NCBI GenBank assembly: GCA_050949225.1
Contig: JBMNFI010000002.1
Coordinates: forward strand, 197,942 to 261,941
Source of the DNA: Bacillota bacterium
Lineage (GTDB): Bacteria > Bacillota > Dehalobacteriia > UBA4068
Reading direction: 5' to 3'
DNA length: 64,000 nucleotides
The first letter of the stretch is position 1. Each line of letters begins with the position of its first letter. The position numbers and the translations under genes are program-made. Positions 15,585 through 28,952 of this stretch are shown here, piece by piece. The notes beneath the pieces were generated by a model. The model was given only the letters and a program-made list of their open reading frames with translations. It searched no databases and had not been told where the DNA came from.

Positions 15585-16086
15585 GTCGCACCCCGCAGGG
15601 GGTGCGTGGATTGAAATACAAGTATTACCAGAGCTGGAAAGAAAGATTTTGTCGCACCCCGCAGGGGGTGCGTGGATTGAAATCGGAAACGGCAAAGCGT
15701 ATGACCCCGCCAAAAGTGTCGCACCCCGCAGGGGGTGCGTGGATTGAAATTCTTAACTGTCTGCACAACATTAAATAATCCAACCGTCGCACCCCGCAGG
15801 GGGTGCGTGGATTGAAATTTTCTGATTTTGTGAAACTTTTCGGGATTGGTCGGTCGCACCCCGCAGGGGGTGCGTGGATTGAAATCCGTTATACCATTTA
15901 TTACGTAAGTTTTAACAACGTCGCACCCCGCAGGGGGTGCGTGGATTGAAATCATCGATTAGCTCTGTGACGATAAAATTAAGCTGTCGCACCCCGCAGG
16001 GGGTGCGTGGATTGAAATAAAATTGTTGATAAGCTCTCCGTCATAGAGGGTTGGTCGCACCCCGCAGGGGGTGCGTGGATTGAAAT
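15585..16086 (+). CRISPR. CRISPR array, 8 direct repeats of 33 bp (GTCGCACCCCGCAGGGGGTGCGTGGATTGAAAT) with 7 spacers of 33-35 bp; leader about 144 bp on the cas2 side
   Basis: Repeats begin at 15585, 15651, 15718, 15786, 15853, 15920, 15986 and 16054, all identical. The repeat is a typical type I-C repeat. The last repeat is not degenerate. Confidence 0.97.
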
Positions 16087-16996
16087 TTAGTGCAACAGCA
16101 GCAATCATCTCTACCTCGCCTGTTTTGACTGCGCCGGCTGTACTGAAATCAGGGAGCCAAGTCTGAACAGGGGCAACGCCCGCCATGCTGACTGCATGGA
16201 ATCCATCAACCCCCATCCGTGCAAAATAGATAGAGCTTGTGCCGTCCACACCTGACGTACCGATGATATCATTGTTACTTCCGGGTTTTGCGCCAAGATC
16301 AATCAGGGGAATACCGTTATACATGGAAACGTTGTTGCCCCATTCATCACGTGTTTCCTGATATTTACCATGAACTTTGGCGAGATACTCAAGAGTGGAA
16401 ATCATGTCACCATTGCCCATAATTGCAGAAGGCTTCCCATCAAGCTTTCTTAAAGCTTTATTTAAGGCGAGAAGGAAAGCACCGCCATTTGTTTCAATGT
16501 TCGCCGCGGTGGAAAGGTCAATGATATTCCCGGCATTAAATTCGGTTGCAGATCCCAATAACGCGGAATCTAAGCCATCAAAGGCATTTGCATTGACTGC
16601 CGAATCACCATTGATCACAGTGTCGCAAAACAGAGCCGCTGCGGCTTTAATTTTTTGTTCCATTTGTAATGTTACTTCACTTATGATACCCCCCATGTCC
16701 GCGATAACGCGGTCAATCTGGAAAGAACCGCCGAAGACCTTTAAGTCGACAGTATAGCGCTGTTTACCAACTTCCTGCGGATTATACTCAGCGTTTACCG
16801 CACGAAAAGCCGCGGTGGGTTGTGTAACCAGGCGAGTATAACCATAAGTTAGCGTTGCGCCGCCACCGGTGGGGGAAACACAATCATCAAAAACCATGTT
16901 ATCAAGCAAAAAGGAGCTTTTGCGGAATTCGTCAATCACTCCCATTTGTAAATCATCCTGTACGTTTTTCTTAGCTTCTTGTAATGTTACTGGCAT
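15959..16996 (-). CDS. phage major capsid protein; only 16087..16996 is capsid-derived, and the 3' end of the ORF reads through CRISPR repeat 8 and spacers (gene truncated or fused by the array)
   Basis: About 300-aa Gly/Ala-rich capsid-like product directly downstream of a scaffold gene. The last 43 codons (..FNPRTPCGVRPT..ISIHAPPAGCD..) are translations of the CRISPR repeat. Confidence 0.6.
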   Translation of the reverse strand: MPVTLQEAKKNVQDDLQMGVIDEFRKSSFLLDNMVFDDCVSPTGGGATLTYGYTRLVTQPTAAFRAVNAEYNPQEVGKQRYTVDLKVFGGSFQIDRVIADMGGIISEVTLQMEQKIKAAAALFCDTVINGDSAVNANAFDGLDSALLGSATEFNAGNIIDLSTAANIETNGGAFLLALNKALRKLDGKPSAIMGNGDMISTLEYLAKVHGKYQETRDEWGNNVSMYNGIPLIDLGAKPGSNNDIIGTSGVDGTSSIYFARMGVDGFHAVSMAGVAPVQTWLPDFSTAGAVKTGEVEMIAAVALNFNPRTPCGVRPTLYDGELINNFISIHAPPAGCDSLILSSQS

Positions 16997-17022
16997 ATTA
17001 TTTCTTCCTTTCGTCTGTTAAA

Positions 17023-17631
17023 TTAATCAGAGCTATTACCGGGGAATAATTTCGCTTTTATTGATTCCTCCAGCCCCTCCGGCTTAGGCGGCTCTGTTCT
17101 TTGTGCCGGATCTTTTTCCTCTCCCGGCTTCATTCCTTTTGGGACTGCCGGCGTAGGATTATCGAATTTGAAACAAAAGTTCTTTTCCTCGTCTTTAGTT
17201 AACGCTGTGATTTGGTCGCCGAGACCGACAATCTCGCCTTCCTTAACTGTGGCAGTTTCTAAAAACTCTGCCAGATAGACCTTGACTACTTTAGGGTCTC
17301 GTGCACCGGCTTTCAGCAAAGCAGATTCTACAATGGCATTTTTTTGTACTGTTAGTAATTCAGCTGCCATGCGTTCAGCTTCAGCTTTGTTGTCTTCTTG
17401 CAGCTTCTTGATTTGCGCCTCCAGCTCTTTATTGTCCGTGTTGGACTTTTGGAGTTCTTTCAGCTGCTTATCACGCTCTGAGACAGTACCTTTGAGGGTG
17501 TCCCTCTCGGTAATCATCTCATCGAGTCGCGACTTCGGCACAAAGCCTTCCAGTGCTTTCTTGTGTTCTGCAACCACCTTGTCGGCTGTTGCATCGTCGA
17601 TGTTCAAACTGGTCAAAAACTCTTTTTTCAT
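17023..17631 (-). CDS. phage scaffolding protein
   Basis: 202 aa, acidic and coiled-coil rich (KELEAQIKKLQEDNKAEAERMAAELLTVQ). Position is between the head-morphogenesis and capsid genes. Confidence 0.65.
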   Translation of the reverse strand: MKKEFLTSLNIDDATADKVVAEHKKALEGFVPKSRLDEMITERDTLKGTVSERDKQLKELQKSNTDNKELEAQIKKLQEDNKAEAERMAAELLTVQKNAIVESALLKAGARDPKVVKVYLAEFLETATVKEGEIVGLGDQITALTKDEEKNFCFKFDNPTPAVPKGMKPGEEKDPAQRTEPPKPEGLEESIKAKLFPGNSSD

Positions 17632-17815
17632 CTCGATTCTTCCTTTCTTTCAAAACATTTTTTTCCCGGTTCAGTCCGGTATTATTGTCTTTTAGTTTTG
17701 CGCCTTAAAATACCAAAAAGGCGATTTTTTTTATAAAAAAAGAGCGCCTACGATAGTAGGTACTCTTAATGTTATATCTGGGTATGAAAAACCACCTCAA
17801 ACAATCAAGGTGGTT

Positions 17816-18043
17816 TTACGGCAACGCGTTAATTATGTCTTGATATTCAAAAGCCTTTTTTGTCATTTGTTGTTTTTCATCAAGGCAGCACCGCAACAAA
17901 TAATCAGATGCTTTTTCCTCTATATCAAGCAACTGTTTTTCGGAAAATTCATTATTAGCAGGACAATTAAAGCCTGCTTCTGCTAATAATTCTTGTTGTC
18001 TTTTACTAAAATCTACTTTCATTATCCTACTCTCCTTTTCCAT
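17816..18043 (-). CDS. small protein overlapping the 3' end of the MuF gene; candidate immunity protein for the MuF C-terminal domain
   Basis: 75-aa ORF overlapping the MuF stop by 17 nt. It is duplicated nearly identically at 25232..25459. Confidence 0.5.
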   Translation of the reverse strand: MEKESRIMKVDFSKRQQELLAEAGFNCPANNEFSEKQLLDIEEKASDYLLRCCLDEKQQMTKKAFEYQDIINALP

Positions 18044-19373
18044 ATTTTTTAATTCTACTTTTCCCGGTTTTCCATGTAGTAATCAGTGTTTTTGTTTCGG
18101 GGTTAACCGCTACTGTCGCCCTTTGCCCAATAAATTGAATAGAAGGCTTCCCTGAAGCATTAATACTAACCTCTGTTATGTGTAACGGGGTCTTTAAAGC
18201 CTCTATTGCGGCACTTACTTCAACAGCACGTTCCTCCCCTCGAGCTATCAAATGAGGGTTTATATGCTCTATAGTTAGTCCGTTCTGTGCTTCTACTCCT
18301 ATTATACCCTGCCAGTCGCTTTCTTTCAACACATAATTTTTATACCATTCTTGATAGGTCATATCGCCCTTAACATATTGTATCTCACCATCTGCACCTC
18401 TAGCTGCCCGCTCAAACTCTTTGCTGAACTCATCATCAAAGTGCGGACAAGTAGTGCCACGACAGCGTGTATGAAAGGGCGGCACAGTCACTCCGGGAGA
18501 ATAATCCGCCATCTTAACAACCTTGCCGTCCATCTCTTGACAAATGGTGCAAACGAGGTCGTCAAGCGTCTCGACAACCTCCACCGCCTCCACATCGAGC
18601 TCTTTATAAGCCTCCTTTTGGCCGGCAGCCACAAAGTACGTTGTTTCCGTATCTAAAAGGGCAGCGGCTCTGTGCTTTTTAACACCGAACTTTGCAGCAA
18701 AATCCTTAACACCAACATACGGCGTTTCACCAGTCATCAAGTTACGCATCAGCTGCGACTGCAAATCGCCAATAAGCGTCTGTTTATCGCGCCATATTCG
18801 ATCACTAAAATTCAGGCCATCAACCGCCCAAGGCGTTTTGATCAAGCGGTTAATCGCCGCCACATCAAGCGGCGAGATTGACCAGACTGCCCCAACACCT
18901 TTTTGAACATTAAAAGCCGTCCGATAGTATGTATCATCTAAAATCTTACGCAATACTTCATCTGTTAGGGCGTATTCCCTAGCATATAAAACCTCAACAG
19001 CCTGCTGCATCTCAATTTTGAGAGCCTCTAAGCGCGAGATATGAACACGAGCTGCAGCGTTTTCCAGCTGCTGAATCCATTTGCCATTGACTTCTGCCTC
19101 TTGTCCTCTGGCAATGTATTCTTCAAGCGTCCATTTAAATTCTTTTAATTCACCGGCAGAAAGTCTTTTATGCGCTTCAGCCAATGGAATTTTATTATTT
19201 TTAGCAAATTGCGTATACCAACGAGAGATTTTATCATCAACCATGTGCATCGCCCTTGTATACTCTTTATTTATCTCTTCCAGCGCAAGAGAAGCAGTTT
19301 GGTGGGCATCTCTGGCAACGTCCTCTGATCGTTTGGTCCAATAAGCCGCACTCCGCTTGAGTAACTCTGTCAT
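18027..19373 (-). CDS. phage head morphogenesis protein, SPP1 gp7 / Mu F family, with a C-terminal extension
   Basis: MuF-family motif ..CTICQEMDGKVV...PPFHTRCRGTTCP. Sits downstream of the portal gene. About 100 C-terminal residues extend beyond the MuF core. Confidence 0.8.
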   Translation of the reverse strand: MTELLKRSAAYWTKRSEDVARDAHQTASLALEEINKEYTRAMHMVDDKISRWYTQFAKNNKIPLAEAHKRLSAGELKEFKWTLEEYIARGQEAEVNGKWIQQLENAAARVHISRLEALKIEMQQAVEVLYAREYALTDEVLRKILDDTYYRTAFNVQKGVGAVWSISPLDVAAINRLIKTPWAVDGLNFSDRIWRDKQTLIGDLQSQLMRNLMTGETPYVGVKDFAAKFGVKKHRAAALLDTETTYFVAAGQKEAYKELDVEAVEVVETLDDLVCTICQEMDGKVVKMADYSPGVTVPPFHTRCRGTTCPHFDDEFSKEFERAARGADGEIQYVKGDMTYQEWYKNYVLKESDWQGIIGVEAQNGLTIEHINPHLIARGEERAVEVSAAIEALKTPLHITEVSINASGKPSIQFIGQRATVAVNPETKTLITTWKTGKSRIKKYGKGE

Positions 19374-19376
19374 CGG

Positions 19377-20885
19377 CTACTCACCTCTTTTGTCCGGCTC
19401 GTCTTCCTCTTTTGTGGAGCTCCAGTCAGTAGGGTAAGCGTCTTCCTCTCTAACTCTTTCAGCCTCAATGCGTTTCATCTCTTTTTCTACATCAGAAATC
19501 CACGGGTGATTACTGATTGCGGTTTCTTTCGATATTAAGGCAGTAGAATTGAGGCAGTTTGCGATAATTTCACTTTCATTGATCATAATGTCACGATTGA
19601 AAATGAAGTCGATCTTCTCGTTTTCAAAATCGCCCTTGCCTTTGGTAGCCAAATAGTTGTTAACAAACCACAATAGGCTCTCCATGGCTGCTTGGTATTC
19701 CGTTTCCATACCGTTTGCATCAAGATCAATGTCACTGTACATGCTCTGGATGTTCATCTGATTAGGGCTGCCGCCCATCATGCGATCATCTTTGGCATCA
19801 TAGCCCATGGCATTTTCGATAATAGCCTTTTTAAACATATCAACAATCGATTCATAGTTTTTAGCATTGACCTCGATGTGGATACTATCTAAACCACCTG
19901 ATTGACCATCAAAAGATTTAACCTTAACTGCACGATACTGCATCAAATTATGCCTAAACGTGCCCAGATCTTCGCCATCATAGTTCTTTAATACAAGAAT
20001 CGAGCTCTGGCCGTCTTCCTGCATAGCGTTTTGAAAATCCGACATCATCAAGTTTAACGAATCTTGTAAATTTTTAACTTTAACAATCAAAGGAATTTCT
20101 TTGGAGTTGTGCTTAAAAGGTATCAATGGCAAACGCTCCCAATGCACCCCTTGCTCTACCGTCCCCCTTCTGTCCTCAGCACTATTGTTAACGACTATAG
20201 AGGCATAGTGGCTAAAAGGGTTAAGGCTATCTGTGATAAGACGTTCTTCTTTATCGTCCCAATCATAATATTCAATACCTTTGAGCGTGTAAACTTCAAC
20301 TTTTTTCTTAATCTTTTCCTCAGTGCCCTCATACTCAATCACTTCATAAATACGAATGGCGTACTCAAGGTCTGTATGCTCTGCATCTTTCCAACTGGGG
20401 ATAATTTCCCAGGGCGAAAAACGCCTAAAAGCAAGCTCTGATTGTTCATCATAATAAACATACAACCAGGCTAAGCCGCAATTAAGCGAATCAGTGCCCA
20501 TACTCCGCAATAATTTGTGAAAACGCTTGTCAAACAGTTCAGATAAGGCCTCTTGATATTCCGCGCTTTCTGTATCAAGCGTTAAGACTTGGCCGACAAA
20601 ATAATTTGTTTTTTGATCAACCATTTTAGCATACTGGTTATGGACAGTACGATTATTGGGCAAGTTTTCTACCGGCTCCAACCTGCCACTTTTGCCAATG
20701 ACCGTACGTTTACGTTGTAAAATATCGTGCTCCCCACGATAATACTTTTCGCCGGTAAGCATAGTTTTGCGTGCTTTAGAGCTTAACCAATTCTTGATTT
20801 GCTGTTCAAGAATCTCTTTTTTGGTCAAGGCGGTTTTGGCATGCGCCTCTATTTTTCTATTAATAAGTTGCGTATCAGTTATCAT
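19377..20885 (-). CDS. phage portal protein (SPP1 gp6-like)
   Basis: 502 aa between TerL and the MuF protein, with typical portal size and composition. Acidic C-terminus. Confidence 0.8.
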   Translation of the reverse strand: MITDTQLINRKIEAHAKTALTKKEILEQQIKNWLSSKARKTMLTGEKYYRGEHDILQRKRTVIGKSGRLEPVENLPNNRTVHNQYAKMVDQKTNYFVGQVLTLDTESAEYQEALSELFDKRFHKLLRSMGTDSLNCGLAWLYVYYDEQSELAFRRFSPWEIIPSWKDAEHTDLEYAIRIYEVIEYEGTEEKIKKKVEVYTLKGIEYYDWDDKEERLITDSLNPFSHYASIVVNNSAEDRRGTVEQGVHWERLPLIPFKHNSKEIPLIVKVKNLQDSLNLMMSDFQNAMQEDGQSSILVLKNYDGEDLGTFRHNLMQYRAVKVKSFDGQSGGLDSIHIEVNAKNYESIVDMFKKAIIENAMGYDAKDDRMMGGSPNQMNIQSMYSDIDLDANGMETEYQAAMESLLWFVNNYLATKGKGDFENEKIDFIFNRDIMINESEIIANCLNSTALISKETAISNHPWISDVEKEMKRIEAERVREEDAYPTDWSSTKEEDEPDKRGE

Positions 20886-20900
20886 CTGATCACCTTTCTT

Positions 20901-22166
20901 TTAATCAAAGCTAAACAGTGACCCTTTGGCCAATTCTTCGAGGGCATATCTCATGGCGTCCATCAAATGGTTAAAATCATCTATTGGTCTGTTAAGGACA
21001 ACGCCCTCGCGGTTTGTATCCCAAATATAATTTGACAGCTCCATCACCGTGTTAGTGCAAGAGGGGTGCACGATAATTTTATAGCCCTGTACGTGTTGGA
21101 TGCCGTGCCTAATACTGTCAGGCCCTTTTCTTGCCGCCCTGATATGCGGAATGTCAGCATCCCTTAGCTCTTGTATTGACTTTGGCTCTGCGCTATCCGC
21201 GATAATTGTTTCTTTACGATAACCTTTGTTGATGATGTGCTCAGCAATCATTTGGTTTGTCAGTTGTTTTTTATAAAATTCATCGAAAACATAGATCTCT
21301 TTGGCTTTTTGATCAACCGCCATTGCAATAAATGCTGATGGGTCGTTGGTATAACCAAAGTCTAAGCCAAAAGTCGTCTTGAGGTACGGTCGCTTTTTGA
21401 GTAATTCTGCTATTTTAAAGTCGTGCTCTTCCCAATTGTCATAAATCAGACCTTCGGCAATGCCCCAATTCCCCAACCCCTCAACCTGATAGCGGCGCGG
21501 TTGGTTGATGCGCATTTCCTCAAAAACCTGTTTATCCGCCTCATCTAAAAATTCATTACACATAAAATTTGTTGTATCGGCAAAAATTAAGTCACTTTCT
21601 GTATCAAAAAACCGTTTTTTAATCCAATGCTTGTCCGACCATGGATTAAACGTCAGTGTCAGCTGTTTAAAATAGCCTTCCGGCACAATGCCGCGCAGCG
21701 AAGTGTCCAGTTTGTTAAAATCAGCCTCATTCATAATCTGGAAGGCCTCTTCAATCCAAAACCAACACAATACGCCTTTATCAACGGTGATTGAGGTGAT
21801 GCTCTGCGGGTCATCCATGCCGCGAAACAGAATCTTTTGACCTGTTGGCTTGTATCTAATTTCCATAGGGTTTTTACTAAACCCCCAAGCATCCGCCGCC
21901 CCTAAACGATTAATCGCCCAAATTAACTGGGCGAAGGTTGAGTCTTTATGGGTGTTGAAATACCGTCGGACAACCAGCAGATTTGCTTCTGGGTATTTCA
22001 TCAGGTTATATATACACCAAAGGGCAGTCGTACAGCTTTTCTTACTGCCACGACCACCTTTTAGTACTCTATATCGTACTTTTGAGTGCCAAAACGAGGA
22101 ATACCCTCTGCCGATAACGCTCGGTAAGTGAATCCTAGGACGCTCAATCCTCGAGTTCATTTTCAC
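20901..22166 (-). CDS. terL: phage terminase large subunit (PBSX/terminase_6-like)
   Basis: N-terminal Walker A (KGGRGSKKS), ATPase followed by a nuclease domain with conserved acidic residues. 23-nt overlap with terS. Confidence 0.88.
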   Translation of the reverse strand: MKMNSRIERPRIHLPSVIGRGYSSFWHSKVRYRVLKGGRGSKKSCTTALWCIYNLMKYPEANLLVVRRYFNTHKDSTFAQLIWAINRLGAADAWGFSKNPMEIRYKPTGQKILFRGMDDPQSITSITVDKGVLCWFWIEEAFQIMNEADFNKLDTSLRGIVPEGYFKQLTLTFNPWSDKHWIKKRFFDTESDLIFADTTNFMCNEFLDEADKQVFEEMRINQPRRYQVEGLGNWGIAEGLIYDNWEEHDFKIAELLKKRPYLKTTFGLDFGYTNDPSAFIAMAVDQKAKEIYVFDEFYKKQLTNQMIAEHIINKGYRKETIIADSAEPKSIQELRDADIPHIRAARKGPDSIRHGIQHVQGYKIIVHPSCTNTVMELSNYIWDTNREGVVLNRPIDDFNHLMDAMRYALEELAKGSLFSFD

Positions 22167-22638
22167 CTTCGAAAACAGGCATTGTAATATTTATATTAGA
22201 CGTTGTAGCCCACATATCGTGGTATTTGCCGATCAATTCAAGCGCTTTATTGGCATCGGCAGTCTTGTTTGGCACTTCAACAACTTCGGCAGTCTGCCTT
22301 TCAGTAGTAATCTTTCGTCCTTTGCTGTTATAATCGCTGTCTTTGTGGGTCAATGTAACAACGACACTCTCCATATCTTTACGACGGCCTATGTTCGTCA
22401 GGCGCATCAAAATCTCTGATACGCCGGCAACACATTCGTCCTCTACTTTGGACATTAATTCATTTTTATAATCAATGATATGCGGCATTTGCAACAAATT
22501 GCAAGTCGTGACAGCAAGAGATCGAGGCTTACCTTTATAACCTGCATCTCTTGCGGCTTTTTCCCTATCCAAACCGTTAGCCACATAGTTTTGAACAAAC
22601 AGCTTTTGTTGATCAGTTATTTGTTTCTTTTTAATCAC
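22144..22638 (-). CDS. terS: phage terminase small subunit (HTH DNA-binding)
   Basis: 164 aa. N-terminal HTH region (QQKLFVQNYVANGLDREKAARDAGYKG) is typical of TerS. Immediately upstream of terL. Confidence 0.7.
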   Translation of the reverse strand: MIKKKQITDQQKLFVQNYVANGLDREKAARDAGYKGKPRSLAVTTCNLLQMPHIIDYKNELMSKVEDECVAGVSEILMRLTNIGRRKDMESVVVTLTHKDSDYNSKGRKITTERQTAEVVEVPNKTADANKALELIGKYHDMWATTSNINITMPVFEGENELED

Positions 22639-22655
22639 TTAAAATCACTTCCTTT

Positions 22656-23225
22656 TTACGCCGTTCTGCGCCACATGTAACATGTGATATATGGCGGTAA
22701 ATTGCCGCTGTTTCCTGAACCGGAGTAGCCCGTGTTGCCTGTTACTGGGTGGTCGTGTTTGGCATCAATTGCTATTCTGTCGGCATTACGTGCTGCTGTT
22801 TTTATTTCCACATTGGAATTCAAACTGATTCCGCCCTGCACATCATACGACAGTATCCCCGACGAATGGACAGGAAAACCTTGTGATCCACCTGTTAAGG
22901 TCCTGATATCGATCGTACCTGATAAGGCTTTTTCTGATGTTGTCAATGTTCCGTTATCATGTCTGTGGCTGTCTAGATACTTACTACCGCCTGTCTTTTG
23001 TGGGGTATTAAACTCTGCTTGTGTCGTATCCACCCCCACAGGCACTCTACCCGTTCCCCATGCGACCCATGTTCCACCCAATAGACTGCCTGGATTGGTT
23101 GCATTTACAGACATATATATTGCTCCTACGGGGTATGCTTTGTCTATATTAAAAGACTTACCATCGACATAGGCTTTGATTTTTTGCCAAAGATACAGTA
23201 ATCCATTATTGTCTAAAATTTTCAT
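22656..23225 (-). CDS. phage tail-fibre / receptor-binding-like protein (paralogue of 23239..23817)
   Basis: Start ATG 23225 preceded by AGGCGGTGG. Its N-terminus MKILDNNGLLYLWQKIKAYVD is shared with the upstream paralogue while the C-terminus is divergent and Gly/Thr/Ser-rich. Confidence 0.5.
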   Translation of the reverse strand: MKILDNNGLLYLWQKIKAYVDGKSFNIDKAYPVGAIYMSVNATNPGSLLGGTWVAWGTGRVPVGVDTTQAEFNTPQKTGGSKYLDSHRHDNGTLTTSEKALSGTIDIRTLTGGSQGFPVHSSGILSYDVQGGISLNSNVEIKTAARNADRIAIDAKHDHPVTGNTGYSGSGNSGNLPPYITCYMWRRTA

Positions 23226-23238
23226 TTTATGCCACCGC

Positions 23239-23817
23239 CTAACTGGCCATGATGGTATCGATTTCAGCATTTGTAATTGCCGCCAAATCATTAAACGTGA
23301 CATAGTCTGTCAAATCAACATCCGTTGAACCGATTTTCTCGTACGCTGATAAATCTGTCAGCCAAATATATTCATCGTAGCTGCCTCCGGAATTAGCCAC
23401 CAGATAAATTATGCCTTTCACTCCTTGTGTGGGCAAGGTCGCAACAATCTGAAAATCAATGCTTGTGATCCCCGACAAGGCGCTATTAATCGCTGTCTGC
23501 ACTTGGCTAGAGGTTTGATATCCCGCCCCATTTGTCAGCTGGTTGTTATTTGTTGGGATTTGATTAGCTGCCGCAATCCCAAGACCCGCTTTTGTTAAAG
23601 TGCCAGTGATTGTTGTGCCGTCAAGAGTTGGCTTGTTGACAATGGTTGTATAATCCGGCGCATTGATTAATCCAAGCAGTGCGTCGGTTAAGTCATTAGT
23701 TGACAGCCCCATATTTTCTACTTTATCAACTTTACTGTTAATTAAACTTTTGAGTTTTTGATTGTAGTATAATAGCCCGTTTTCATCCAAATATTTTTTA
23801 GGTGTCATGTTTTTCAC
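23239..23817 (-). CDS. phage tail-fibre / receptor-binding-like protein
   Basis: Conserved N-terminal KKYLDENGLLYYNQKLKSL followed by a Thr/Gly/Asn-rich variable region, as in siphovirus fibre proteins. Confidence 0.5.
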   Translation of the reverse strand: MKNMTPKKYLDENGLLYYNQKLKSLINSKVDKVENMGLSTNDLTDALLGLINAPDYTTIVNKPTLDGTTITGTLTKAGLGIAAANQIPTNNNQLTNGAGYQTSSQVQTAINSALSGITSIDFQIVATLPTQGVKGIIYLVANSGGSYDEYIWLTDLSAYEKIGSTDVDLTDYVTFNDLAAITNAEIDTIMAS

Positions 23818-23820
23818 TCC

Positions 23821-24075
23821 TTAAAATTGATTATTAATAATTTCTTCAATCTCCATATTTGTCAAACTGTCTTCCGCTAAATTCCGATTACCCTTCAAGG
23901 CAACCGCATTAATTGACGGTAGGTTTTCCAGCTCGTTATAGTCACTTGTCATAATGTATTCTGTGACTATATCGCTGTCCAAAACCAGCGAACTCTCACT
24001 CTGCCCGGACAGATCAATGACAAAATCCTCTTCTTCTGCTAATTTTATTTTTTCATCCATAACGCACCACCTCAT
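23821..24075 (-). CDS. hypothetical small acidic protein (phage-associated)
   Basis: 84-aa ORF, first gene pair of the leftward operon, 4-nt overlap with the upstream ORF. Confidence 0.4.
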   Translation of the reverse strand: MRWCVMDEKIKLAEEEDFVIDLSGQSESSLVLDSDIVTEYIMTSDYNELENLPSINAVALKGNRNLAEDSLTNMEIEEIINNQF

Positions 24076-24281
24076 TCATTCTCTGCAAACGTGATCTCCG
24101 GCAGAATTTCTAACTCCCCCAAAACCGTCTGCTTATAGGTTGGGTTAGCCCTATATAACTGGATATCAAAATAATATTTGCCAAAATGAAGGCTGTCCGT
24201 CTCTTCCGGCAAAATAACAAAGTGGTAACGACCTTCTTCGTCCTTTGTTATCTCATTTCGGCTGAGGCGTTTTTGAAACAA
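24072..24281 (-). CDS. hypothetical small protein (phage-associated)
   Basis: 69-aa ORF, translationally coupled with 23821..24075. Confidence 0.4.
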   Translation of the reverse strand: MFQKRLSRNEITKDEEGRYHFVILPEETDSLHFGKYYFDIQLYRANPTYKQTVLGELEILPEITFAENE

Positions 24282-24287
24282 AAAATC

Positions 24288-24316
24288 TTGACTACACGTG
24301 TTACACGTGTTATTCT
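24288..24316 (+). promoter_or_regulatory. putative hicAB promoter with a tandem ACACGTGTT operator-like direct repeat in the spacer
   Basis: TTGACT (-35), then ACACGTGTTACACGTGT in a 17-bp spacer, then TATTCT (-10), about 25 nt upstream of the hicA ATG. Confidence 0.35.
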
Positions 24317-24341
24317 ATGTATAGAGCGAAGGTGCTAACAA

Positions 24342-24506
24342 ATGAAATTCCGGGAACTCGAAAAGATCATAAAAGCGGATGGCTGGGAGCATATTAAGAC
24401 AGTAGGATCATATCACCAGTACAAGCACCCAGCAAAACCCGGAAAGGTTACGATACCGTACTCAAACAAAGATTTAAAATTAAACACCATAAATAGAAAG
24501 GACTGA
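24342..24506 (+). CDS. hicA: type II toxin HicA (mRNA interferase), 54 aa; not in the ORF track because it is under 60 aa
   Basis: Translation MKFRELEKIIKADGWEHIKTVGSYHQYKHPAKPGKVTIPYSNKDLKLNTINRKD matches the HicA consensus (ELxKLLxxDGW..xGSHHxxKHPxxPG.VTVP). Sits immediately upstream of hicB. Confidence 0.75.
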   Translation: MKFRELEKIIKADGWEHIKTVGSYHQYKHPAKPGKVTIPYSNKDLKLNTINRKD

Positions 24507-24511
24507 ACAAT

Positions 24512-24913
24512 ATGAAACTTATATATCCTGCCTGCCTTTATCCTTGTGAAGAGGGTGGTTACACTGTGGTCTTTCCTGATCTGCCCGGTTGTGTAACTGA
24601 AGGGGATACTTTAGAAGATGCCCTTGATATGGCCGCTGATGCTGCCTGTGGTTGGATACTAGGAGAGACTGAGGATGACAATCCTTTCCCCTCTGCCTCA
24701 GATATCAAAGGTATAATAGCAGATGAATACAAAGAAGGATTTACTTCCCTTATCCCTCTGGACATGGAGAAATACGCTAAAAACCATAGCAATAAGTCTG
24801 TTAATAAAACTTTAACTATACCGGCTTGGTTAAATACTGCTGCAGAAAAAGAGAATGTCAACTTCTCTCAGGTACTGCAAGAGGCACTAGCCAAAAAGCT
24901 TGACGCTATGTAA
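24512..24913 (+). CDS. hicB: type II antitoxin HicB
   Basis: N-terminus LIYPACLYPCEEGGYTVVFPDLPGCVTEGDTLEDALDMA is the HicB/UPF0150 RNase-H-like fold signature. C-terminal RHH-like DNA-binding tail. Confidence 0.85.
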   Translation: MKLIYPACLYPCEEGGYTVVFPDLPGCVTEGDTLEDALDMAADAACGWILGETEDDNPFPSASDIKGIIADEYKEGFTSLIPLDMEKYAKNHSNKSVNKTLTIPAWLNTAAEKENVNFSQVLQEALAKKLDAM

Positions 24914-24922
24914 AACAATATA

Positions 24923-25022
24923 GTCGCACCCCGCAGGGGGTGCGTGGATTGAAATAATTTGATCGCTTGGGTTCGTCGGCGATTGAGCTGTCGCACCCTG
25001 CAGGGGGTGCGTGGATTGAAAT
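24923..25022 (+). CRISPR. CRISPR mini-array: 2 repeats and 1 spacer (34 bp). The second repeat is degenerate (C to T at position 10), as expected for a trailer-end repeat
   Basis: Repeat at 24923..24955 is identical to the main-array repeat. The repeat at 24990..25022 has one mismatch. Same orientation as the main array 8.8 kb upstream. Confidence 0.9.
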
Positions 25023-25510
25023 TTTACAGTGGTGTTTTTTTCTACCGTTAGTAATTCAGCTGCCATGCGTTCAGCTTCTTGATTTGTGCCTCCGGCTCTA
25101 TTGTCTTTTGGTTTAACGTCTCAAAATACCAAAACGGCGATTTTTTATATAAAAAAGGAGCGCCTACGATTATAGGTACTCTTAATGTTATATCTGGGTA
25201 TGAAAAACCACCTCAAATAATCAAGGTGGTTTTACGGCAGCGCGTTAATTATGTATTTATATTCAAAAGCCTTTTTTGTCATTTGTTGTTTTTCATCAAG
25301 ACAGCACCGCAGCAAATAATCAGATGCTTTTTCCTCTATATCAAGCAACTGCTTTTCGGAAAACTCATTATTAGCAGGACAATTAAAGCCCGCTTCTGCT
25401 AATAATTCTTGCTGTCTTTTACTAAAATCTACTTTCATTATCCTACTCTCCTTTTCCATATTTTTTAATTCTACTTTTTCCGGTTTTCCATGTAGTAATT
25501 AGTGTTTTTA
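25023..25510. repeat. partial direct duplicate (with internal deletions) of 17345..18110: internal scaffold fragment, junction and small ORF
   Basis: Long near-identical stretches shared with 17352-17382, 17408-17428 and 17690-18110, for example CTCTTAATGTTATATCTGGGTATGAAAAACCACCTCAAA..AATCAAGGTGGTTTTACGGCA. Confidence 0.8.
25232..25459 (-). CDS. second copy of the 75-aa small protein (candidate immunity protein), now orphaned
   Basis: 73 of 75 residues identical to 17816..18043. The upstream MuF gene is absent except for its last few dozen nucleotides. Confidence 0.5.
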   Translation of the reverse strand: MEKESRIMKVDFSKRQQELLAEAGFNCPANNEFSEKQLLDIEEKASDYLLRCCLDEKQQMTKKAFEYKYIINALP

Positions 25511-25562
25511 TTATGAAAATCTATGAAAAAAACCACCCTGTTGTGGGGTGGCTTAATCGCTA

Positions 25563-25808
25563 TTAGTTTTCAAAATAGGGGTTTATATCTACTTGAGATC
25601 TAATTTCTACGCCATAATGCGCGGCATTTAAGACATTAACTTCTTTGCCATTAAGCAAATAGGATTGGATCTGAGAGCCGTCAACATCTTCCAAGTAATC
25701 ATTTTTTATTAACGCAGGTATATTTCTTTCGAGAGCAGCGCACTGCCTCTTGAAAATATCTTCGTCAAAAACATTACAAATCACATATTCATAATTGTAT
25801 TTATACAT
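25563..25808 (-). CDS. small paralogous protein A (about 80 aa), candidate orphan immunity protein
   Basis: Paralogue of 26348..26587 and 27399..27641 (shared ..C.VFD.DIF..QC.ALE.NIP.L...DY..DVD.SQIQ.Y.LN.K.V.VLN....GVE..S.VD..PYFEN). Followed by a hairpin and T-run terminator at about 25527-25553. Confidence 0.5.
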   Translation of the reverse strand: MYKYNYEYVICNVFDEDIFKRQCAALERNIPALIKNDYLEDVDGSQIQSYLLNGKEVNVLNAAHYGVEIRSQVDINPYFEN

Positions 25809-25882
25809 TTGCTAGCCCTCCTGTTTATACTTTCGATAATTTTCGTGGATGATCTATAAAGTGGTTTTAGCTAATATTCGTT

Positions 25883-26279
25883 TTAAATGGCTAAATAATT
25901 CAATGCAAAATGATATCTATCTAGACGTTTCAAATCTTTTTTTAGTCACTTCTGATAATCTAGAAAGATCAGAATTATGTCTAAGGTCTGCAATTTTCAC
26001 TTTTTTTGCTAAAGGATTATTCTTTACTCTCTTCAGGTATTCAGTATAACCTTCTCTTTTGCACTTTGTAATAATTGTTACAGCTTCTATAATTTCTTGA
26101 CAAAAGCCAGCTTCAATAAGTTGTTCTTTTGTGTAATCGCTGTCTTATAAAACATCATGCGAAAGGGCAACGATCTTTTCTTTTTCTGTGTAGACCATTG
26201 CAGCGACTGTTAAAGGGTGGTTGATATACTCGTTTCCTCCCTTGTCTTTTTGACCTTTATGTGCTTTTTGAGCAATCAT
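25883..26279 (-). pseudogene. decayed small HD-domain protein resembling a RelA/SpoT-type (p)ppGpp hydrolase (small alarmone hydrolase-like); in-frame TAA plus a +1 frameshift
   Basis: Minus-strand translation MIAQKAHKGQKDKGGNEYINHPLTVAAMVYTEKEKIVALSHDVL*DSDYTKEQLIEAGFCQEIIEAVTIITKCKREGYTEYLKRVKNNPLAKKVKIADLRHN.. matches the RSH hydrolase N-terminus (H..GQ.R.sGEPYi.HPl.VA..l....D...i.AALLHDvvEDT....eei...FG..Va.lV.gvTK...). The TAA at 26145-26147 replaces the conserved Glu, and the frame shifts at the A7 run 25937-25943. Confidence 0.5.
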
Positions 26280-26347
26280 CAAAGCCTTCGCCAACAAGTT
26301 TACGCGCCTCGCTTTCGGTATTAATCCATAAAATGGTTTAATCGCTA

Positions 26348-26587
26348 TTAGTTTTCAAAATATGGTAACAGATCTACTTCGGAATTTACTTCTACACCAA
26401 ATATGGGCGTATTTAAAACTCTGACCTTTTTATCATTGAGCCAGTATATTTGAATTTGAGAGCTATCTACATCAACAGCATAGTCGCCCTTTTTTAATTC
26501 TGGTATATTCTTTTCAAGAGCAGTACACTGTTCCTGAAAAATATCAGAATCAAATACCTGACAAATAAAATATTCATGTTTGAACAT
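26348..26587 (-). CDS. small paralogous protein B (79 aa), candidate immunity protein for the upstream 154-aa domain
   Basis: Paralogue of 25563..25808 and 27399..27641. Starts 3 nt after the stop of 26590..27054. Confidence 0.5.
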   Translation of the reverse strand: MFKHEYFICQVFDSDIFQEQCTALEKNIPELKKGDYAVDVDSSQIQIYWLNDKKVRVLNTPIFGVEVNSEVDLLPYFEN

Positions 26588-26589
26588 TG

Positions 26590-27054
26590 TTAGCCCTCCA
26601 ATCCAAGTAATTTATTGATTTCTTTGTTTGACCGTGTAGAACTGTCGATTAAAGCCCTATAAAGATCATCGTCTGATTTATACAGGCTCCTGTATTTATC
26701 AACGTAAAAACTAAATTCCCGCAGAGGTGCATCTCTCACCAATCTTTCCAGTTCTTTCATGTCAATCATCATGTCCCTTGCTTGCTGCTTAAAGGTGTTT
26801 CTCAGTTCATGCGCCTGCATAGCCTGATCTTTTAGAGATAGTGTGCCGTCTAACATTGACGGAATTTTCTTATTGTGGGCTATGTACCAAGATCTTACTT
26901 CATAATTACCCAACATTCGATCAAATTTCAGCGAATAGTCCAAAGTATCAAGTCTATTTTGCTTACCGGCTTTTAACGCTTTCCATTTGTCAATTTCATT
27001 ATACTTTAAATATTGAAAATCCACAAGATTATTTGTATGCTTAATCCTAATCAA
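26590..27054 (-). CDS. orphan copy of the C-terminal domain found on the MuF-domain protein 27638..28732 (candidate orphan toxin-CT module)
   Basis: 154 aa, homologous over its length to the last ~150 residues of 27638..28732 (for example QAMQAHELRNTFKQQARDMMIDMKE vs QARQAYSLRNQYKEEARNLMADMAE, and SSTRSNKEINKLLG vs TATKSNEKVNKEVG). Confidence 0.5.
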   Translation of the reverse strand: MIRIKHTNNLVDFQYLKYNEIDKWKALKAGKQNRLDTLDYSLKFDRMLGNYEVRSWYIAHNKKIPSMLDGTLSLKDQAMQAHELRNTFKQQARDMMIDMKELERLVRDAPLREFSFYVDKYRSLYKSDDDLYRALIDSSTRSNKEINKLLGLEG

Positions 27055-27129: not shown

Positions 27130-27240
27130 TTATCCAGTATCAGCCTTCAAAACTTCAATGCCCTTACCATATTCCGCCATAATTTTGTCAATGATATCCT
27201 TGTCATCAATGCCCAAACTTTCTAAAAATTCACGTTTCAT
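27130..27240 (-). pseudogene. fragment of a phage scaffold gene (first ~36 codons only)
   Basis: Minus-strand ORF MKREFLESLGIDDKDIIDKIMAEYGKGIEVLKADTG* parallels the scaffold N-terminus MKKEFLTSLNIDDATADKVVAEHKKALEGF of 17023..17631. Same position relative to a MuF plus small-ORF pair. Confidence 0.4.
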
Positions 27241-27398: not shown

Positions 27399-27641
27399 TT
27401 AGTGCTTAATAAGCAGGTCGTCAAGTGGGTACGTGGATTTTACATACACCGCATCTACCAATGTGTCCATATAGATATCGATTTTTTCATTGTTTGCCGT
27501 AATATAAACAGCAATCAAAGAGCCATCCACATCTTCAAGCAGATCTTTCTTGACAGTAAAAGCCTTCTCAATTACTTTACATTGTGCATCAAAAACAGTT
27601 TTATCCACTTCTTTTGCGATAGTATAATCGTATTTCATCAT
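27399..27641 (-). CDS. small paralogous protein C (80 aa), candidate immunity protein for the C-terminal domain of 27638..28732
   Basis: ATGA overlap with the upstream MuF-domain gene. Paralogue of 25563..25808 and 26348..26587. Confidence 0.5.
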   Translation of the reverse strand: MMKYDYTIAKEVDKTVFDAQCKVIEKAFTVKKDLLEDVDGSLIAVYITANNEKIDIYMDTLVDAVYVKSTYPLDDLLIKH

Positions 27642-28732
27642 TTGTAACCCACCTCCTTGTTCACTTTTTCGTTAGACTTTGTCGCGGTCTTAATAATGTC
27701 TTTTAAGGCTTCTTCTCGTGTTAGCCCCTTACGCTCAATCTTATCATTAAGCAAATAATCAAAATCTGGAGCGGGGCTCTTGGCATCAAGCTTCGCCCTT
27801 TCTGCCATATCGGCCATCAGGTTGCGAGCCTCTTCTTTGTATTGGTTGCGCAAGGAATATGCTTGCCTTGCCTGTTTTTCTAGGCTCTGGGCGGTATCTA
27901 CTTGAGACGGAATAGACTTAATATGCTCATCATACCACTGTCTAACAGCTAGATTGCTTGCCTTGATATTGTTCGCCGCAAGTTCCTGATACTCCATTTT
28001 GGCGAATATATCACGGCCTGCCTTATCTAAAGCTATTATACCACTTTTAGCAGACAATTCCAAGTTCTGGACCCCGGCTCTTTCGCGGAAATAGTCACGA
28101 CTTAAGCCGGTTTGACTGATAAAATCTCTTTGCCTTGCTTGCCATTCTCGCACCTTGCCTTTAGCAAAGCTGTTGTCTAGTCCTGCTGCGTCATAAGCGC
28201 TGCCCTCACGCTTCCAGCGTCTTATTTGGCGCTCAATATAGCGTTGATGTTGAGTAGCATCATAAAGGCTCATCTTTTCGCCGTTGAAAGTGACTTCTCG
28301 ATTGTTGAGATCTCGCAAGCGGTCAGCATCATAGGCCTTTTCGTCTAGGCCTTCGACAAAGGGAAACCAGTCATGGCGACAATTTGCGCCTTTAAATCCT
28401 GTTACATCACCATAACCTATATCATCTAAAGATAGATAGCCATCTCTGCCTGATATACTCACCAGCTGCCCTTGCCATACTGCATGGCTTGGTCGAGCTG
28501 AATGATGAGCCGTCAATTCCATTAAGTCCGTATCCATCTCTTTGGCTCTGGCCAGCTGCAAATCTCCCGCTGTCTGGTTCACACCAGTCATAATTGCTCT
28601 TCTTGCAGCCACATCCAAGTAATCAGTATGTCCACCGGGATATGTGATAGATGCCAGCCCCTTAACAGTTAGGTCTCTAATCGCTCCTTTAACTGCCGTC
28701 CGGTAATCAAAAGCACCAGAGATGATTTGCAT
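27638..28732 (-). CDS. MuF (SPP1 gp7)-domain protein with a ~150-aa C-terminal extension; candidate MuF polymorphic toxin, detached from any portal or terminase genes
   Basis: MuF core motifs HHSARPSHAVWQGQLVSISG and KGANCRHDWFPF parallel the motifs in 18027..19373. The C-terminal ~150 aa are paralogous to 26590..27054. Confidence 0.55.
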   Translation of the reverse strand: MQIISGAFDYRTAVKGAIRDLTVKGLASITYPGGHTDYLDVAARRAIMTGVNQTAGDLQLARAKEMDTDLMELTAHHSARPSHAVWQGQLVSISGRDGYLSLDDIGYGDVTGFKGANCRHDWFPFVEGLDEKAYDADRLRDLNNREVTFNGEKMSLYDATQHQRYIERQIRRWKREGSAYDAAGLDNSFAKGKVREWQARQRDFISQTGLSRDYFRERAGVQNLELSAKSGIIALDKAGRDIFAKMEYQELAANNIKASNLAVRQWYDEHIKSIPSQVDTAQSLEKQARQAYSLRNQYKEEARNLMADMAERAKLDAKSPAPDFDYLLNDKIERKGLTREEALKDIIKTATKSNEKVNKEVGYK

Positions 28733-28910
28733 AATTTATGAATTCGAGATGTGTACTAAATACCTTTGATGTGATAGTATCCTGCAGTTCTGTATTTTGT
28801 ACTTTGCATGGATTATACAGATCAAACGAGAAAACCGTGGACAATTAACAGACTGAGGGATTTTTATGGTATCAGTGTCTCCAAAAACTATCCTTTAGTC
28901 TTCGTTAAAG

Positions 28911-28952
28911 GCTAGCGGACTTCTCCTTAAGGAGAAGTCCGCTAGCTTTTTT
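28911..28952. terminator. strong hairpin terminator (GCTAGCGGACTTCTCC-TTAA-GGAGAAGTCCGCTAGC followed by a T-run) between the phage-remnant block and hcp
   Basis: 16-bp perfect stem, 4-nt loop, T6 downstream on the plus strand and A-run on the other side. Possibly bidirectional. Confidence 0.45.

Follow-up and report, generated by a model that had tools for sequence, protein, structure and literature searches.

Between the type I-C CRISPR array and the host gene hcp, the 64,000-nucleotide stretch of Bacillota bacterium DNA analyzed here (contig JBMNFI010000002.1, positions 197,942 to 261,941; referred to below as the window) holds a series of broken phage head genes. The question raised by this locus is why the same small part of a head module, the 3' end of a MuF gene, a short open reading frame (ORF), and part of a scaffold gene, recurs there. 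Four decayed cassettes lie between the array and hcp and a fifth, complete one is located in an 8.8-kb phage block within the array; they belong to two types, and all have the same orientation. As judged from the sequence, the recurring unit is a MuF toxin-tip/immunity cassette, an architecture that is already known, and we consider it reasonably probable that the remnants are best explained as orphan immunity genes that were retained during prophage erosion. What is new at this locus is a series of such putative genes that derive from eroded head modules and have a CRISPR array on one side and a host gene on the other.

The cassette closest to the array was delineated by blastn of the window against itself and by a repeat scan. 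Positions 25021-25512, referred to here as copy 2, are a diverged duplicate of 17325-18096 (copy 1) in the phage block. The main match, 25091-25512 with 17675-18096, extends over 422 bp without gaps at 93.8% identity, with a longest exact stretch of 66 nt, and two shorter pieces (25021-25078 with 17325-17382, at 90%, and 25072-25105 with 17401-17436) complete the copy. A preliminary description of this DNA had reported a near-copy of about 490 bp with internal deletions that holds a scaffold fragment, the terminator region, a 75-amino-acid (aa) ORF, and the end of a MuF gene, and the alignments bear out both its extent and its content. Copy 2 has lost 18 bp (17383-17400) between CAGCTTC direct repeats and approximately 240 bp (about 17437-17674) with a junction in a shared 7-nt TATTGTC; both have the sequence hallmarks of typical microhomology deletions, and the erosion assumed in that description is thus visible. 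The first base of copy 2 directly follows R10, the last repeat of the array, with an ambiguity of 2 nt. On the minus strand, copy 2 consists of two internal scaffold-gene fragments flush with R10 (25023..25105; blastn and alignment), an intergenic region with a terminator hairpin, the intact second copy of the small ORF (25232..25459, 75 aa, aligned with copy 1), and the final 23 codons of a gene of the MuF1 type (25443..25512), which encode the tail of a DUF4258-like domain. Position 25512 is where the homology to copy 1 stops. The true start of the small ORF is probably the ATG at 25438, which is preceded by a Shine-Dalgarno (SD) sequence and gives a protein of 68 aa. All that is left of the larger phage genes in copy 2 is 23 codons of MuF and about 28 codons of scaffold.

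Between the 68-aa copies there are 7 synonymous and 2 nonsynonymous codon changes (nonsynonymous divergence [dN], 0.012; synonymous divergence [dS], 0.218; dN/dS, about 0.05), and the intergenic DNA adjoining the small ORF differs between the copies at 14 of 141 positions. Apart from this, internal repetition in the window is confined to the repeats of the CRISPR array and to a single pair of small ORFs with 70% identity. With no further copies in the 64 kb, the copy 2 segment is therefore not a dispersed repeat, the case that the preliminary description had named as speaking against its view, and a conserved 40-nt stretch of the segment gave no match in IMG/VR.

The other three decayed cassettes follow toward hcp, all on the minus strand. 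An orphan 81-aa ORF with an SD sequence (25563..25808), followed by a terminator at 25530-25554, was assigned by alignment to its 79- and 80-aa paralogs in the window, a family referred to here as s80. The second of these, an intact 79-aa ORF (26348..26587), has its SD sequence inside the end of CT154 (26590..27054), an ORF with a TTG start and no SD sequence that, by alignment to MuF C termini, represents one complete C-terminal module, referred to here as CT-X. The cassette nearest hcp, remnant 3, contains MuF3 (27638..28732; PF06152, Phage_min_cap2, E value of 1e-70), which is N-terminally truncated by about 150 residues and lacks an SD sequence. Residues ~230 to 364 of MuF3 form a CT-X extension of ~135 aa, and 159 aa lie after the Pfam domain. 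The MuF3 stop codon is overlapped by an 80-aa ORF of the s80 family with a strong SD sequence (27399..27641; alignment), and the first 36 codons of a scaffold gene of the GP20 family, ending in a stop, are found at 27130..27240 (55% identity to scaffold 1 over 29 aa). Just upstream of this truncated scaffold gene there is a GP20-b RNA motif (RF03003; 27263..27320, minus strand), with an Rfam score of 43.9 bits against a gathering score of 36.2; Rfam detected no such motif in the equivalent intergenic regions of copies 1 and 2. Between the 81- and 79-aa ORFs, two orphan small genes, sits an HD_4 pseudogene (about 25850..26300, minus strand) of the alarmone-hydrolase-like type, with a Pfam E value of 2.5e-6, an internal stop, and a frameshift.

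Remnant 3 had been described as a third remnant of the same module. Its content of a MuF gene, an 80-aa ORF, and 36 scaffold codons stands; however, it resembles copy 1 at the protein level only, and since MuF3 belongs to PF06152 and not to PF04233, we take it to stem from a different phage lineage. The sequences indicate that the cassettes derive from at least two or three different phages: the divergence between copies 1 and 2 is 6%, and the remaining cassettes belong to another MuF family. The earlier statement that one module had been broken at least three times thus holds as far as repetition in one orientation is concerned, with five cassettes in place of three and more than one source phage; CT154 with its 79-aa ORF, the 81-aa ORF, and the broken HD_4 gene had been overlooked. 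MuF3, CT154, and copy 2 have lost the portal side, which homologs retain.

The cassettes share one property. Each of the four decayed cassettes retains an intact small ORF with a good SD sequence (GGAGAG, AGGAGGG, GGAGGG, and AGGAGGTGGG), and every neighboring gene is broken: ~150 residues are gone from MuF3, the reading frame of scaffold 3 ends at codon 36, CT154 is without a MuF body, and the HD gene has both a stop and a frameshift. SD sequences are missing for CT154 and for the truncated MuF3.

The complete cassette in the block shows what the unit looks like before decay. The portal gene (19377-20885, minus strand; Pfam) is directly followed downstream by MuF1 (18027-19373, minus strand; PF04233, E value of 4e-12), which continues for 141 aa beyond its Pfam domain and for 100 aa beyond residue 348, the last residue conserved in its family, and then by the first copy of the 68-aa acidic ORF (17816..18022, minus strand), with the SD sequence GGAGAG 7 nt upstream. 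We surveyed 80 IMG/VR loci that are related via the portal protein and yielded 63 complete MuFs, including the window's own. Among these, similarity to MuF1 ends at approximately residue 348, while total lengths range from 344 to 732 aa, and the parts past residue 348 cluster into 12 C-terminal types. A small ORF directly follows 50 of the 51 long MuFs versus 5 of the 12 short ones, and the C-terminal type covaries with the small-ORF type (11/13, 6/6, and 3/3 for the three cleanest types). Other C-terminal types, one with an HExxH metallopeptidase motif, occur in four IMG/VR loci (L036, L026, L077, and L039), each with its own small-ORF family.

According to PMC5576092, a MuF polymorphic toxin combines a MuF domain with 100 aa or more of C-terminal extension and is accompanied by a small ORF of putative immunity function. 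The described systems (Jamet et al. 2017, PMC5576092; MuF-Apk2/Tis1/Aph1, Ahmad et al. 2023, PMC10083569) share with the cassettes seen here a MuF gene (PF04233 or PF06152) located downstream of portal, an extension that is 100 aa or longer and differs from one close relative to another, an ORF of less than 150 aa directly downstream, the occurrence of one C-terminal domain on different MuF families, and the presence of an HD-type hydrolase gene beside a cassette. For a MuF-fused (p)ppApp synthetase, an HD-domain hydrolase is the second immunity gene (PMC10083569), and by analogy the broken HD_4 gene would fit the toxin/immunity picture. Unlike in those systems, four of the five cassettes here are orphans that sit in eroded prophage DNA and have lost the MuF body, and CT-X fits no listed toxin family. 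Tandem MuF orphan immunity genes are not described in the main text of PMC5576092, in which the word "orphan" occurs 0 times. Orphan modules are known from contact-dependent growth inhibition (CDI) as well as Rhs systems (Poole et al. 2011, cited in PMC5576092), where same-strand truncated toxin C termini are likewise each accompanied by an intact small gene; here, however, no full-length toxin gene stands at the head of the series, scaffold fragments separate the modules, and the source is phage head modules and not a secretion-system locus.

For the MuF1 type, the C-terminal domain (residues 342 to 448, 107 residues; 18030..18350, minus strand) was characterized by HMMER, structure prediction, and fold matches. 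Exhaustive HMMER searches gave homologs in 571 representative clusters, in which the domain is always C-terminal (median of 1 residue from the end) and is carried by PF04233 MuFs, PF06152 MuFs, a portal-MuF fusion, and many proteins of 94 to 250 aa. In an alignment of the domain, His33 and Arg41 are invariant. Several homologs match DUF4258 below threshold, with a best score of 22.5 bits against a cutoff of 25. An AlphaFold (AF2) model based on a 25-sequence alignment had a predicted local distance difference test (pLDDT) score of 89 and was used in place of a poor single-sequence model (pLDDT of 47). With this model, Foldseek retrieved the C-terminal ribonuclease of colicin E5, RelE, HigB, and two CdiA-CT toxins from the PDB (E values of 0.1 to 1), and the hits in a viral structure library were Gp35-type proteins of phages (2e-10) and, at 7e-3, a DUF4258 protein from a phage. 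The domain is thus a putative RNase toxin domain with a predicted RelE/colicin-E5-like fold, and the 68-aa ORF next to it is, from its position in the sequence, the putative cognate immunity gene. In L019, a contig of a distant phage, the same C-terminal type on a MuF is followed by a colinear 69-aa acidic ORF (24% identity, E value of 4e-4). A word-index homolog search with the 68-aa ORF returned just its own metagenome-assembled genome, Pfam and PHROGs searches with the small ORFs and C-terminal domains gave nothing above noise, and PDB sequence searches gave no match.

The second type pairs CT-X, a MuF C-terminal module of ~135 to 140 aa, with the s80 family of ~80-aa ORFs, of which three paralogs are present here. 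CT154 aligns with residues 366 to 513 of a 514-aa PF04233 MuF (L116) at 42.6% identity over 148 aa and with residues 260 to 362 of MuF3 at 38%; because of the 148-aa alignment, CT154 can be regarded as a whole C-terminal module that was cut just upstream of its start. The nearest phage relative of MuF3 (L094) ends at the equivalent of residue ~228, has no small ORF, and is directly followed by the scaffold gene. An Anaerotignum prophage has CT-X (60% identity) on a PF06152 MuF, and phage contigs have it on MuFs of PF04233; in each case an s80-family ORF follows within 3 nt. The s80 family, which includes the 80-, 79-, and 81-aa ORFs of the window, comprises 74 clusters of proteins of 76 to 85 aa, mostly from Clostridia, and has no Pfam domain. 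A word-index search with CT154 retrieved just itself and one 196-aa protein. One 84-aa member of the s80 family (P0043), listed in 88 blocks of the collection index, is a lone gene in a nonphage context, with no MuF, other phage gene, or C-terminal remnant near it in its contexts, and in this it is similar to orphan immunity clusters, in which immunity-type genes stand alone in genomes without the toxin. In many metagenome contigs (contexts L118 to L121), P0043 lies between DUF362/ferredoxin and Cu_amine_oxidN1 genes, with a tRNA-like sequence downstream.

In light of this architecture, a mechanism for the retention of the small genes can be proposed. SPP1 gp7 is, in the established view, packaged and ejected with the phage DNA (summarized in PMC10083569). 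If MuF proteins in general enter the capsid and leave it together with the DNA, cells would meet incoming toxin tips, the small genes would neutralize these tips, and immunity would therefore be useful even after a prophage has decayed. The duplicated spot, made up of the MuF 3' end, the small gene, and the scaffold start, is the place at which, in this phage family, a swappable two-gene cassette of putative toxin tip and immunity gene sits, and the small genes would be kept by selection while microhomology deletions trim the prophage head modules. The recurrence of the junction would then reflect survivorship of a selectable gene and not a property of the breakpoint. Both the toxicity of the C-terminal domains and their neutralization by the small proteins are putative.

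Several results weigh against the retention of immunity genes as the explanation. There are about ten lesions in 3.7 kb and none in the 26% held by small ORFs, which, at a P value of about 0.05, is suggestive only, and a promoter scan of the orphan small ORFs gave nothing above the shuffled expectation. The low dN/dS ratio between the 68-aa copies mostly reflects evolution in phages before capture and not necessarily selection in the host. The DUF4258 and fold matches of the MuF1 C-terminal domain are individually weak, being below the Pfam gathering score and at PDB E values of 0.1 to 1, respectively. CT-X has no match among known families in Pfam, PHROGs, or PDB sequence searches; it is a toxin candidate by architecture alone and could instead be a structural or partner-binding extension. 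Finally, the data come from one population and one set of metagenomes.

A different explanation, put forward in the preliminary description, sees the array's trailer end as a site at which related phages recombine repeatedly; the remnants would then be neutral debris, every insertion having been worn down by the one after it. The array itself provides arguments for this. The whole 64-kb window contains a type I-C cas operon (cas3-cas5-cas8c [Csd1]-cas7-cas4-cas1-cas2, from the Pfam families of the called genes) that precedes a leader and, by repeat scan, ten 33-nt repeats; type I-C, to which the system belongs, is recognized by this gene set together with a leader and repeats of ~32 to 33 nt that end in ATTGAAAY. 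By repeat scan and pattern search, repeats R1 to R8 (15585..16086, plus strand) enclose seven ordinary spacers of 33 to 35 nt, and R9, one 34-nt spacer, and R10 follow at 24923..25022 on the same strand. R10 (24990-25022) has a single mismatch (C10T), and its 3' end is intact; the typical degenerate terminal repeat and the trailer are missing here, while I-C arrays used for comparison (contigs L092 and L122) close with a repeat that is degenerate at its 3' end. Additional degenerate repeats, after copy 2 or elsewhere, were not found above the shuffled expectation. The missing trailer, three junctions exactly on repeat boundaries, the single orientation throughout, and the visible microhomology deletions are all compatible with debris. 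However, copy 2 is the only remnant in contact with the array, and the other three abut each other or hcp-side DNA, so the notion of a recurrent target at the trailer end is not sustained. Furthermore, neutral debris leaves unexplained why an intact small ORF with an SD sequence is present in every remnant while the larger genes are all cut and why the retained piece is always the toxin-tip/immunity cassette. We therefore consider neutral debris unlikely, if still worth weighing, and a swappable MuF C-terminal toxin/small immunity cassette at the junction is the more specific explanation for the recurrence.

The repeat borders nevertheless call for an explanation of their own. An 8,836-bp phage head and packaging block (16087..24922, phage head genes on the minus strand; Pfam and junction sequences) occupies the position of a spacer, in exact register, between R8 and R9, which are perfect and identical 33-nt repeats. 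It encodes the major capsid protein (MCP), scaffold, the 68-aa ORF, MuF1, portal, the large and small terminase subunits (TerL and TerS), two Gp10_C-like proteins, and small ORFs. At the left end, MCP is cut at codon 303 of 318, a breakpoint defined by the fact that all nine MCP homologs checked have 318 aa; the right end lies 9 nt past the hicB stop codon, flush with R9. The preliminary description had noted that two remnants break exactly at a CRISPR repeat, and this is confirmed: R8 meets capsid codon 303 at 16086|16087 and R10 meets a scaffold fragment at 25022|25023, to which the hicB end and R9 at 24922|24923 add a third flush junction. Type I-C systems require a 5'-TTC protospacer-adjacent motif (PAM) and have spacers of 33 to 36 nt. 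For a 33- to 35-nt "spacer" that ends at 24922, the 3 nt upstream read CTA, ACT, or CAC directly; the corresponding bases are inferred to be GAT for 25023, from copy 1, and GCY for 16087, from the MCP homologs. With an 8,836-bp insert and no TTC, the junctions thus differ from canonical I-C spacers. Three flush, register-true, PAM-less junctions are hard to obtain by chance, and they are a real feature of the locus.

Assembly artefacts were considered for each junction. The junction between R10 and copy 2 is unambiguous even in k=31 contigs (L107), because the R10 mismatch is unique. The other two recur in five assemblies: the Joint Genome Institute (JGI) metagenome contig Ga0591962_0000024 is identical or nearly identical to the window, and four further JGI samples have the same layout, so this chromosomal layout is found in five JGI metagenome assemblies. 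The source samples are listed as JGI 3300060680, 3300061563, 3300060803, 3300060679, and 3300060823 and as SRR31061295/6, SRR31065934, and SRR3106603x. Two contigs deviate from it. L105 (Logan SRR31066037_311580) reads from hicB through one repeat into MCP, the junction expected from recombination between R8 and R9 with a unit of 8,869 bp; as no k=31 k-mer spans a 33-nt repeat, it is unreliable as evidence. L103 (JGI Ga0591957_0019742), a "circular" contig of 7,415 bp, has the junction expected between the 422-bp copies (unit, 7,416 bp) and passes from one copy to the other within their 66-nt longest exact stretch, which is the behavior of an unresolved assembly loop. Both could be explained as assembly-graph artefacts, and real excision or amplification products are possible as well.

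One explanation for the flush junctions is that the type I-C adaptation integrase, Cas1-Cas2 alone or together with Cas4, treated linear phage DNA of kilobase length as a spacer, placed it at a repeat, and thereby duplicated the repeat, once for the 8.8-kb block and earlier, in a full or half-site reaction, for the phage of copy 2. We regard this, the candidate of greatest interest, as unlikely. It would account for the perfect, identical 33-nt repeats on both sides of the 8,836-bp block in spacer register and for the arbitrary block ends in MCP and past hicB. The block proteins include no integrase and the block ends have no terminal inverted repeats, and the order from copy 2 through one spacer and the block to the seven spacers next to the leader fits successive leader-proximal insertions; independence from a PAM is expected if Cas4 trimming was bypassed. 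The resulting structure is also reminiscent of casposon integration, in which a multikilobase insert is flanked by a direct duplication as long as the target, here the 33-nt repeat, except that this insert has neither terminal inverted repeats nor a casposase and the enzyme would be the CRISPR Cas1-Cas2. On the other hand, copy 2 has no repeat after it, and at this single locus the outcome is indistinguishable from recombination with a repeat-bearing donor. We know of no precedent for kilobase-long integration in vivo by CRISPR Cas1-Cas2, and our literature search on long Cas1-Cas2 integration found casposase and short-substrate work only. A fuller claim seems to us rather unlikely: the I-C integrase would have joined phage DNA of kilobase scale to repeat borders on two or more occasions, as "giant spacers," and the array would have been a capture site for whole phage modules, among them toxin-immunity genes that were subsequently kept. 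If it were true, casposon-style transposition and spacer acquisition would be bridged by a living intermediate, and if Cas1-Cas2 made the junctions, the adaptation machinery would have a wider scope.

It is also conceivable, though in our view very doubtful, that a temperate phage used the CRISPR repeat as its attachment site, or that a donor with a solitary repeat integrated, and then decayed. Prophage PhiAP1.1 integrates into type II-A repeats of Streptococcus pyogenes, with spacer loss and transfer, and no such integration was seen in S. pyogenes I-C loci (Varble et al., bioRxiv 10.1101/2020.10.09.333658). As with PhiAP1.1, phage DNA here lies inside a CRISPR array, is bounded by repeats, and is accompanied by remodeling of the array, and L105, read as a circle junction, would support such an element. 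However, the system here is of type I-C and not II-A, only an 8.8-kb head module without an integrase is present, and the repeats on both sides are complete and in spacer register and not split into attL and attR. The phage-side ends lie inside genes, on the left in the capsid gene, and since copy 2 is broken at another gene, scaffold, the breakpoints are not site specific on the phage side. An 8.87-kb circle would be devoid of tail, lysis, and replication genes, the I-C repeat occurs in none of 87 related phage loci nor anywhere in IMG/VR, and L105 comes from a k=31 graph with a 33-nt repeat and is a possible graph artefact.

The cassettes themselves could instead form a recombination reservoir that lets incoming or resident phages swap MuF tips, similar to the CDI/Rhs orphan modules. 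The tandem series of C-terminal fragments and small genes in one orientation, the cut of CT154 almost exactly at the module boundary, and the 66-nt exact stretch within the 422-bp pair would suit this function, yet no intact MuF lies upstream of the orphan series, MuF3 being without its N terminus and portal, the scaffold fragments between cassettes indicate separate prophage remnants and not displaced modules, and two orphans hold just about 10 to 23 codons of the C-terminal domain, too few to donate a toxin; we consider such a role highly unlikely. Least credible is that the junctions are former spacers that recombined with a matching phage protospacer, as Varble reportedly described for staphylococci in 2019, or an assembler walking from array to phage via such a spacer, since, although recombination would leave phage sequence scarlessly at a repeat border and metagenome arrays are heterogeneous, the PAM test is negative at all three junctions, no spacer of the array matches phage DNA, and the junctions withstand the assembly checks described above.

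Searches for relatives of the array and of the block were largely negative. An exact-repeat scan found no occurrence in IMG/VR, just two unrelated arrays in JGI metagenomes, and just one unrelated Lachnospiraceae array in GTDB genomes; a Cas1-based genome scan with poor peptide patterns yielded no relatives, and megablast of the 8.8-kb block against GenBank phages gave no match. Some further features of the block are of note. The HicA/HicB toxin-antitoxin pair at its right end (24342-24913, plus strand; Pfam) lies on the strand opposite to every phage head gene. At its left end, the capsid frame continues across reverse-complemented CRISPR repeats and spacers into a chimeric 345-aa ORF (15959-16996, minus strand), which gene callers annotate as a protein but whose genuine capsid part ends at codon 303 of 318. 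Two neighboring genes of ~189 aa (22656-23817, minus strand) share an N-terminal motif, and one of them has a Gp10_C baseplate/tail-fiber head domain; their location upstream of terS is an odd site for tail-fiber-like genes, and no counterpart beside terS was found among the 80 related phage loci. A context search with the 189-aa protein returned nothing informative. At the other end of the locus, the phage-derived remnants span from R10 to approximately 28740, ahead of the hybrid-cluster-protein gene hcp (28997-30571; Pfam). A perfect palindromic terminator with a 20-bp stem is located at 28907-28950, downstream of hcp, and an apparent strain breakpoint 80 bp past hcp was rejected as an assembly effect, as the three k=31 Logan contigs concerned end inside this palindrome.

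The role of MuF-fused toxins for phages is an open question (PMC10083569). Four intact small genes of two cassette types, left behind when their phages were lost, are the signature expected if MuF tips reach nonlysogenic cells and immunity pays. The locus makes this injected-toxin idea testable with defined pairs, for which the two 68-aa copies offer a natural two-residue variant, and the distinct C-terminal/small-ORF sets in the IMG/VR relatives are ready-made candidate toxin/immunity pairs. In addition, the locus yields a previously unnamed MuF C-terminal module, CT-X, together with its ~80-aa partner family.

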